A stretch of DNA of 64,000 nt from Gammaproteobacteria bacterium (GTDB lineage: Bacteria > Pseudomonadota > Gammaproteobacteria > UBA12402), in assembly GCA_050123375.1 (NCBI GenBank), contig JASFHF010000004.1, forward strand, positions 5,116 to 69,115, written 5' to 3'. The notes beneath the pieces are model-generated. The model was not told the DNA's origin. It ran no database searches and saw only the letters and a program-made list of their open reading frames with translations. The position numbers were made by a program, and so were the translations under genes. Positions 22,653 to 23,799 of this stretch are shown piece by piece; position 1 is the stretch's first letter, and each line of letters begins with the position of its first letter.

Positions 22653-23435
22653 ATGCATGCAAAATTTATTAAGCAATTACGCAAAAAACTTCAGTTAACC
22701 CAAGAATATCTTGCAGAACAATTGGGTATATCTCGTCCTACTTATATACAGTTAGAACGCGGTGAGCGTGATTTAACTGTACCTGAGGCGGAAAAACTAG
22801 CCAAAATTTTTGGATTGCGTTTAGAAGATTTTTTAGCTGAAAATATACCTAATATATCTATTGAAATAACTAAAGCTGCAATTACAGTTAAAAAACCAAA
22901 GAATGAAATTAGAATCAACATACCGCAACAAAAACTTGATAAGTTTAAGCAAGTGTTACTTTATATTTTAAAAAAAGTAGGTGGCAAACCAAATATTGGT
23001 ATGACTGTAATCTATAAATTGCTTTATTTTATAGATTTTGATTATTATGAGAAATATGAAGAACAGCTTATGGGGTTGGTTTTTATTAAAAATCATTTCG
23101 GTCCAACTCCGGTTGTATTTGAAAAAATTATTCAACAAATGATTGATGATAATCAAATTGAGCGAATTAAAAGTAAATATTATAAACATGAGCAAACTAA
23201 GTATTTAATTAATCCGGAAATAGAACCAGATCTTAGTATTTTAAATGGTCAGGAAATAGAACATATTGATTGGGAGTTACAGAGATTATCAAGTCTTAAT
23301 GCCGCGACGATTTCTAATCTTTCACATAAAGATATTCCATGGGTTGGTGCGCAATTGGGAGAACAATTAGATTATGAGGCGGTTTTTTATCGTACCGCTG
23401 ATACTTCCGTACGGAATTATAATAATGATGATTGA
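22653..23435 (+). CDS. HTH-XRE DNA-binding domain fused to Panacea (DUF4065, SocA/PanA-like) domain; candidate type II antitoxin
   Basis: GGAGGT RBS 7 nt upstream of the ATG at 22653 (the ORF track starts at 22629). N-terminal LTQEYLAEQLGISRPTYIQLERGER HTH. Central KLLYFIDFDYYEKYEEQLMGLVFIKNHFGPTP resembles the Panacea/DUF4065 core. Confidence 0.65.
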   Translation: MHAKFIKQLRKKLQLTQEYLAEQLGISRPTYIQLERGERDLTVPEAEKLAKIFGLRLEDFLAENIPNISIEITKAAITVKKPKNEIRINIPQQKLDKFKQVLLYILKKVGGKPNIGMTVIYKLLYFIDFDYYEKYEEQLMGLVFIKNHFGPTPVVFEKIIQQMIDDNQIERIKSKYYKHEQTKYLINPEIEPDLSILNGQEIEHIDWELQRLSSLNAATISNLSHKDIPWVGAQLGEQLDYEAVFYRTADTSVRNYNNDD

Positions 23436-23799
23436 ATATAGTGAAACTAACGGATTTAAAAAAGATTTTAAAAAATTAAGTAAAAAATTTAAAACACTTG
23501 CAACAGATTTGGATGTTGCAAAAAAATATGTAATAGAATTATTTCATTTAAATAATATTGATAATCAAAGTGTTGTTCAGGTGCCTGGATATGCGAACGA
23601 CTTTTACCAAATTTATAAATTACGCAAATTTGCTTGTAAAGCTTTAAAAGGTAGAGGGTCCAAGAGCGGAATTAGAATTATCTATGCATATTATGTGAAA
23701 ATCTCAAAAGTTACATTTATCGAAATGTATTTTAAAGCCGATCAAGCAAATGCGGATACTAAACGAGTTAAAGAATTTATCAAACAGCAAAAGATTTAA
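23425..23799 (+). CDS. RelE/YafQ/HigB-like mRNA interferase toxin candidate
   Basis: Start ATGATG overlaps the antitoxin stop (ATGATGATTGA). MIEYSETNGFKKDFKKL resembles the YafQ/RelE N-terminus; GSKSGIRIIYAY is a RelE-like beta-strand motif. The tracked ORF start at 23374 is probably too far upstream. Confidence 0.55.
   Translation: MMIEYSETNGFKKDFKKLSKKFKTLATDLDVAKKYVIELFHLNNIDNQSVVQVPGYANDFYQIYKLRKFACKALKGRGSKSGIRIIYAYYVKISKVTFIEMYFKADQANADTKRVKEFIKQQKI

Follow-up and report, generated by a model that had tools for sequence, protein, structure and literature searches.

The 64,000 nt stretch of DNA analysed here, hereafter the window, comes from a Gammaproteobacteria bacterium of the UBA12402 lineage (contig JASFHF010000004.1 of assembly GCA_050123375.1, positions 5,116 to 69,115 of the forward strand). 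It contains two overlapping genes, referred to here as A and T, which very probably constitute a bicistronic type II toxin-antitoxin (TA) cassette of the PanA-PanT kind, recently inserted into gshA, with A encoding the antitoxin and T a HigB-2-like toxin that cleaves mRNA. Support for this assignment comes from the domain content of A, the conserved pairing of the two genes, the RelE-type predicted fold of T, the conservation of its catalytic residues and a conserved promoter motif.

Organisation of the two genes

Gene A encodes a protein of 260 amino acids (aa), identical throughout its length (100%) to the public record P0241, which is named 'DUF4065 domain-containing protein'. Its ATG lies 7 nt downstream of an AGGAGG Shine-Dalgarno sequence. 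An alternative, longer version of the gene starting at 22629 was rejected, because this position is directly 3' of the predicted -10 box and because 22653 is the start in the public record as well as in the alignment of the family. Gene T follows on the same strand, beginning at either 23425 or 23428 and hence encoding 124 or 123 aa; in the public record (P0001) it appears in the 124 aa form as a 'hypothetical protein'. Both open reading frames and their start-stop overlap are present where the initial annotation placed them, although the 125 aa it gave for the downstream protein was a slight overestimate. The TGA stop codon of A (23433-23435) falls just within T, such that the final 8 or 11 bases of A are shared, depending on which ATG is used. 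No separate Shine-Dalgarno sequence for T is evident in the sequence, and therefore translation of T is likely to be coupled to that of A.

A fixed partnership across many phyla

Relatives of T were sought in one genome per GTDB species. They were found in at least 334 species, from which the best 80 loci (L001-L080) were retrieved. At every one of the 76 species loci that could be assessed, the gene immediately 5' of the T homologue encodes a full-length homologue of A (phmmer E <= 1e-69), and at 75 of these it overlaps the start of T, by 8-35 nt depending on the start codon; the sole non-overlapping locus, L001, has a small inserted element between the two genes. Three more distant T relatives, matching the profile with E values of 1e-19 to 1e-22, were also inspected: two have a gene encoding HTH (helix-turn-helix) and SocA_Panacea domains upstream, whilst the overlapping upstream gene of the third has no Pfam record because it is cut by the contig end. 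The arrangement of A and T is not the product of chance and, given its presence at all 76 loci and beside two of the three distant relatives, the partnership within the T family is fixed rather than promiscuous.

Patescibacteria (the candidate phyla radiation, CPR) account for 47 of the 80 best loci, as judged from record titles, with the remainder spread across Proteobacteria, Nitrospirota, Acidobacteriota, Firmicutes and others. Identity across phyla is unusually high for a TA pair, at 45-66% for T and 60-78% for A, which suggests that the unit as a whole, with its promoter, is often transferred horizontally. Such mobility, and the spread over many phyla, would suit a module that serves mainly in phage defence by abortive infection, with the Panacea domain sensing a phage cue and releasing T, an idea compatible with the biochemistry proposed below. 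We nevertheless regard this role as doubtful: searches of phage (50,697) and plasmid (72,556) records turned up no copy of T, the sole PADLOC match is a weak one to the HTH domain of A, with none for T, no defence genes are adjacent to the cassette within the window, and no trigger is known.

The antitoxin is an HTH-Panacea fusion

The fusion of an XRE-type HTH to a Panacea (DUF4065) domain, read from the letters alone in the initial annotation, holds up well against profiles, with both domains scoring far above the curated Pfam cutoffs. HTH_3 (PF01381) matches residues 6-60 of A (E 5.4e-16; 58.8 bits, cutoff 23), and SocA_Panacea (PF13274/DUF4065) matches residues 121-230 (E 4.7e-16; 60.2 bits, cutoff 25.7) over positions 2-112 of the 113 in the profile. 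Precomputed PF13274 matches exist for all 120 A homologues listed. Thirty homologues from many phyla, 60-88% identical to A, were aligned (A2), and the alignment divides the protein into an HTH_3/XRE domain (residues 1-61), a variable linker (~62-84), an EIRI(N/S)IPQ segment (85-92) and the Panacea domain (~92-230), followed by a C-terminal tail at ~240-256 (YEAVFYRTADTSVRNY). The HTH, the EIRI(N/S)IPQ segment and the Panacea core are all strongly conserved, the last of these extremely so, and the tail is invariant.

The AlphaFold2 (AF2) model of A has a predicted local distance difference test score (pLDDT) of 65, being confident for the HTH, partly so for the Panacea domain and of low confidence for the linker and tail; when A is modelled alone, pLDDT falls below 50 at residues 240-260. 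Helices at residues 3-12, 17-24, 28-35, 43-53 and 57-61 form the five-helix fold of the HTH, for which Foldseek matches include C.BclI, SinR, P22 c2 and DdrO, with template modelling (TM) scores of 0.7-0.8 normalised on the target. Neither sequence nor fold searches identified a solved Panacea structure, the HTH being the only part of A with matches in the PDB.

The toxin belongs to the RelE/ParE superfamily

The T family, comprising 762 representatives at 50% identity (E <= 1e-3), falls largely outside the curated collections: T has no match above threshold in Pfam, NCBIfam, PADLOC or PHROGs, and its homologues, numbering over 650 when clustered at 90% identity, all lack a Pfam domain. The cross-phylum alignment of the family (A1) has 20 columns without variation and a further 19 that are nearly invariant. 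Numbering T from MIEY = 1, the invariant residues include Y4, H40, K64, K67, C70, K74, G75, G77, S80, G81, R83, Y86, Y101, F102 and K103. Searched against 177,635 PDB sequences, the family profile matches HigB-2 of Vibrio cholerae with an E value of 2e-4, aligning T residues 72-116 to HigB-2 residues 53-97. A comparison with hhalign, for which the HigB-2 sequence used is consistent with the part displayed by the PDB profile search, gives a probability of 70% and an E value of 4e-5 over 37 columns.

These matches are mirrored by the predicted structure. The AF2 model of T (pLDDT 86.6, predicted TM-score 0.84) consists of a strand, two helices, four strands and C-terminal helices, in that order. 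When it was compared to the PDB with Foldseek, 42 of the first 43 hits were RelE-family toxins or RelE-fold proteins; the best was 1wmi_A (E 5e-4), and HigB2 (8a0x), YoeB (7v6w), RelE (4fxh) and YafQ (4ml0) were also found. The profile match, the hhalign comparison, the fold and the conservation of catalytic residues described below together support the placement of T in the RelE/ParE superfamily. The description of T as RelE/YafQ-like in the initial annotation therefore stands as regards the superfamily, but not as regards YafQ: no YafQ chain appeared in the PDB sequence search up to an E value of 10, and YafQ structures rank ninth and lower in the fold search, below HigB2, YoeB and RelE, with TM-scores of 0.39-0.42 on the query. 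The nearest characterised relative of T is V. cholerae HigB-2.

Mutagenesis has identified Arg51, Arg64, Tyr82 and Lys84 as active site residues of HigB-2 (PMC5416850). Three of these four, R64, Y82 and K84, align with the invariant R83, Y101 and K103 of T in both the profile search and hhalign, in answer to the question, raised at the outset, of whether RelE-type catalytic residues are conserved. In the model, a K-L-R motif ends the predicted strand beta-2, from which we infer that the counterpart of Arg51 may be either K64, which is invariant, or R66, which is always R or K across the family. T also has a basic loop of low confidence, KALKGRGSKSG, which mirrors the disordered loop ASKGKGKRGGS of HigB-2.

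A second occurrence of the domain gives an independent hint of its function. The last 115 residues of a 3334 aa protein containing Fil_haemagg_2 haemagglutinin repeats (P0446; L161:1753-11757) are a T-family domain, 37% identical to T, in which the R, Y and K catalytic residues are kept. This layout, which is that of contact-dependent or polymorphic toxins, suggests that the T domain acts as a toxin. Only 77 nt of the contig remain beyond the gene, and any immunity gene would lie past the end of the contig. This second occurrence also bears on the idea that there is no TA pair at all, with A one of the usual XRE regulators and T an accessory protein without harmful effect, or a decayed one. 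The absence of T from every curated family would fit such an idea, but it is extremely unlikely when set against the strong purifying selection evident from the invariant columns across phyla, the retention of the catalytic residues, the constant coupling of T to A, and the reuse of the domain at the C terminus of a giant haemagglutinin-repeat protein.

A number of observations weigh against the interpretation of the pair as a Panacea antitoxin with an mRNA-cleaving toxin. The best curated match of T, to PF06296 ('RelE'), of which we take HigB-2 to be a member, reaches only 13.3 of the 27 bits required (E 0.097), and this model matches, at most weakly, three of 30 members of the T family. The sequence similarity to HigB-2 is confined to the C-terminal half of T, the counterpart of Arg51 lies outside the aligned stretch and is aligned by no tool, and the fold search gives modest TM-scores, of 0.49-0.55 when normalised on the query and 0.5-0.69 on the target. 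On the side of the antitoxin, identification of the neutralising element is only a guess, because the model of A is of moderate quality. Proteins with the RelE/ParE fold can furthermore be gyrase inhibitors instead of RNases. Finally, all members of the most similar published group, T14, which is discussed below, are marked 'notest' in Dataset S1 of its source (PMC8832971).

That T is a ParE-like poison of DNA gyrase, neutralised by A in just the same manner but with a target other than mRNA, is nonetheless very unlikely. RelE and ParE do share a fold, ParE-domain toxins are among the PanA partners identified by CDD (Kurata et al., PMC8832971), and ParE2 (5cw7) does appear in the fold search, albeit low in the list. 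However, at the level of sequence T matches HigB-2 alone, three of the catalytic residues of this ribosome-dependent RNase are invariant in T, and ParE structures lie far below those of RelE, YoeB and HigB (rank 49, probability 0.18).

A conserved promoter and putative operator

The best sigma-70-like match in the region upstream of A (10 of 12 positions) has a -35 box of TTGACA (22600-22605) separated by a 17 nt spacer from a -10 box of TATTTT (22623-22628). Around it lie three putative operator sites: AGTAAA at 22577-22582, an inverted half-site, and TTTACA at both 22588-22593 and 22612-22617. The upstream regions of the homologous loci were anchored on the TTGACA closest to the start of A, a hexamer found in 61 of 75 loci. 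These 61, from many phyla, share the layout TGTaAA-N5-TTtACA-N6-TTGACA-N6-TTTACA, followed by a TAtAaT-like box, the most informative flanking positions being C at -8 (52/61), C at +16 (42/61) and G at -22 (37/61). Conservation of non-coding sequence around the -35 box across phyla, beside a gene encoding an HTH protein, represents good circumstantial evidence for autorepression, with the TTTACA-like repeats as the sites at which A would bind.

A proposed mode of action

Both genes would be transcribed from this single sigma-70 promoter, with their translation coupled through the 8 or 11 nt overlap. A would bind T directly and hold it inactive, by means of its Panacea domain, its conserved C-terminal tail or the two together; complexes between PanA proteins and toxins have been described (PMC10440598). 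Either alone or together with T, A may then bind the TTTACA-like repeats that flank or overlap the -35 box, so repressing the operon. Were A to be lost or triggered, free T would be expected to enter the ribosomal A site and cut mRNA, using R83, Y101 and K103 and a basic residue of strand beta-2 (K64 or R66), by analogy with HigB-2.

As the element that neutralises T we tentatively favour the tail, possibly acting with the Panacea domain, because it is invariant yet poorly predicted when A is modelled alone, and because the antitoxins of RelE-family toxins typically act through a short helix or strand that becomes folded as it binds (PMC5416850). The chief competing proposal is that the globular Panacea domain neutralises T by itself, leaving the tail to serve another purpose, such as degradation tag or dimerisation. 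Standalone Panacea domains do neutralise their toxins directly in the PanAT systems of Bartonella and Gelidibacter (PMC10440598), and the extreme conservation of the Panacea core of A would accord with this. In multidomain PanA proteins, by contrast, neutralisation is carried out by appended segments (Phd-C, PAD1 and ZBD), and the Panacea domain has been proposed to act as a sensor (PMC10440598). With the invariance of the tail and the habit of RelE-family antitoxins also against it, we consider neutralisation by Panacea alone a substantial possibility, but the lesser one. This family would allow the roles of Panacea and tail in neutralising a RelE-type toxin, and the recognition target of the HTH, to be tested; as both proteins are highly conserved, their partnership is fixed and the promoter and operator are conserved across phyla, it makes a good experimental model.

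Insertion of the cassette into gshA

The cassette lies between a gene encoding a 66 aa cysteine-rich membrane protein and gshA (PF08886, E 2e-184), which is on the opposite strand (23796-25085). An empty version of the site is present on a metagenomic contig, L081 (1600-1850), whose GshA protein is 80% identical: there gshA ends ...LELHKKYASL*, and the gene for the small membrane protein is directly next to it. In the window, by comparison, a segment containing nothing but the promoter and operator, A and T has been inserted, and is bordered by a duplication of ~50 bp of the 3' end of gshA (Table 1). The left arm, together with the ancestral flank, would encode ...LELAKNYASS*, whilst the functional gene, which contains the right arm, now ends ...LELAKNN*, its stop codon (23796-23798) overlapping that of T (23797-23799). 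The GC content of the insert is 0.28-0.30, as against 0.34-0.39 in gshA and ctpA. The cassette is a recent insertion into the last codons of gshA, and the filled and empty sites form a pair that is an exact record of its entry into the chromosome. The same insertion in gshA is found in L001, an 87% identical relative.

Table 1. Coordinates of the TA cassette, its parts and the duplicated gshA ends, in window numbering
Feature	Position	Strand	Basis
Left arm of ~50 bp duplication, orphan gshA 3' end	22515..22565	-	Repeat with 23803-23853; alignment to L081
Inserted cassette, 1237 bp (promoter/operator, A and T only)	22566..23802	+	Junctions versus empty site in L081 and relative L001
Promoter and putative operator	22577..22628	+	Best sigma-70-like match in region, 10/12
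Shine-Dalgarno AGGAGG for gene A	22640..22645	+	7 nt before ATG at 22653; read from sequence
Antitoxin gene A (panA-like)	22653..23435	+	Window open reading frames; Pfam; 30-homologue alignment A2; AF2 model
A/T overlap ATGATGATTGA	23425..23435	+	A stop TGA 23433-23435; candidate T ATGs at 23425 and 23428
Toxin gene T (panT-like), RelE/ParE superfamily, HigB-2-like	23425..23799	+	Alignment A1; HigB-2 match; hhalign; AF2; Foldseek
Right arm, functional gshA 3' end	23803..23853	-	Gene 23796-25085; PF08886

Two further homologous cassettes, at unrelated loci, are also flanked by repeats of the end of a neighbouring gene: that of L049 lies between copies of a 125 nt repeat of the rpsP 3' end (2792-2916 and 4555-4679), and that of L033 between copies of a 75 nt repeat of the 3' end of a gene encoding a 119 aa protein (2852-2926 and 4568-4642). 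Overall, flanking repeats of at least 30 nt were found for three of 62 real cassettes, compared with four of 843 shifted control positions, three of these four controls being attributable to other elements in L001. One explanation would be that the minimal A-T cassette is itself a mobile unit, which enters the last codons of unrelated genes and leaves long target duplications of variable size (~50, 75 and 125 bp). We judge this to be unlikely. No recombinase gene was seen adjoining the cassette, and we know of no matched class of element that leaves such footprints without a recombinase of its own.

Other origins and identities for the region were considered and rejected. An integron attC site is not indicated, as the repeat consists of coding sequence from the 3' end of gshA, has no greater propensity to fold than its shuffled versions (z-score 0.75) and corresponds to plain gshA in the empty site. 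Integration linked to tRNA was discounted since the window has no tRNA genes, and a regulatory RNA since there is no Rfam match.

The L001 locus carries several additional elements. To the left of its TA cassette is a second cassette of 1645 bp, encoding a 462 aa membrane HD-GYP (HD_5) protein and flanked by a 38 nt direct repeat (1265-1302 and 2910-2947), which is absent from the window; were the A-T cassette a mobile unit in its own right, this second cassette would be further cargo moved in the same way. The element separating A and T in L001 (3838-3994) is a palindromic sequence of ~157 bp resembling a miniature inverted-repeat transposable element, with 26 nt terminal inverted repeats that are 92% complementary; it is situated exactly at the A/T junction, where it takes the place of the final residues of A. 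L001 has another copy of this element beyond gshA (5678-5841; 89% identical), and the window has none.

Other features of the window

Just to the left of the cassette, in a low-GC stretch, the window encodes a 480 aa protein (20287-21729) with a 192 bp (64 aa) internal repeat in 2.5 copies and, at its C terminus, an ACTMAP-like peptidase domain (E 1.6e-6); it looks effector-like. Elsewhere, an intergenic region (27676-27846) contains a perfect tandem duplication of an 84 bp unit (2.0 copies, 100% match). Its neighbours are a gene that, on reading the translation, we take to encode an M23-peptidase-like protein of the EnvC type and what is presumably gpmI.

Comparison with known systems

Within the RelE superfamily, HigB-2 (5JA8, 5JA9 and 8A0X; Hadzi et al. 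2017, PMC5416850) is the closest solved relative of T by sequence, and the two have in common a basic beta-2-beta-3 loop rich in G-x-G, an RIIY strand and a Y-x-K motif in beta-4, although the N-terminal helical region of T is longer. The operons also differ. The gene order is reversed in HigB-2/HigA-2, with higB preceding higA, and HigA-2 has a C-terminal HTH and neutralises through a disordered N-terminal segment, whereas the HTH of A is N-terminal and is joined to a Panacea domain. Resemblance to the RelBE and YafQ-DinJ systems of Escherichia coli extends to the RelE-type fold of the toxin and to an antitoxin-first operon with autoregulation, the latter being putative for A-T; however, neither toxin matches T at the level of sequence, and their antitoxins are ribbon-helix-helix proteins without a Panacea domain. 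The active site of YafQ is histidine-based, and has no counterpart among the invariant residues of T.

The same Pfam domain is also found in the antitoxin of the Caulobacter type VI system SocAB, SocA being the founding DUF4065 protein. SocA is an adaptor that delivers the toxin SocB, an inhibitor of the replication clamp, to ClpXP. A falls below the threshold of the NCBIfam SocA_antitoxin equivalog model (NF047745; 12.5 bits against a cutoff of 190), and T is unrelated to SocB.

The closest precedents are to be found among the PanA proteins catalogued by Kurata et al. (2022), 343 of which have N-terminal HTH domains (PMC8832971). Dataset S1 of that study lists PanA proteins paired with HigB-2-like toxins (group T14), as well as with the other RelE/ParE-like groups T28 and T59. 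T14 has 16 members, among them WP_015641600.1 and WP_119120439.1, for which the top HHpred match is HigB-2 at 99.7%; its antitoxins are HTH-PanA proteins from Saccharibacteria, Cryosericum, Pedobacter and Flexibacter, and the gene overlaps include those of 8 and 11 nt (PMC8832971). The A-T cassette resembles this group (T14/pT15) in the N-terminal HTH and Panacea domains of its antitoxin, the order of antitoxin then toxin, the 8 and 11 nt overlaps and the HigB-2-like toxin annotated as a 'hypothetical protein', as well as in the presence of Saccharibacteria, a group that dominates the T family too. The T family is probably Kurata's T14, a comparison made by architecture, overlaps, HHpred assignment and taxa rather than by sequence. 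When L057, a supposed Bacteroidetes homologue, was used as the query, all the proteins retrieved were metagenomic or from CPR, with no named Pedobacter, Flexibacter or Saccharimonas entry, and the NetFlax supplements were of no help in equating the two. Unlike the 16 published members of T14, the T family extends to at least 334 GTDB species.

The initial annotation had viewed the pairing as non-canonical. It does differ from the classical partnerships of RelE-family toxins with RelB, Phd or HigA antitoxins, but it is not new, as PanA proteins with HigB-2-like toxins had already been listed (PMC8832971), and its novelty is therefore low. The pairing is itself of little import, being a widespread and well-supported case of a listed Panacea/RelE-fold combination: the A-T cassette is a new, or at most newly recognised, example of the catalogued association between an HTH-PanA antitoxin and a HigB-2-like toxin.

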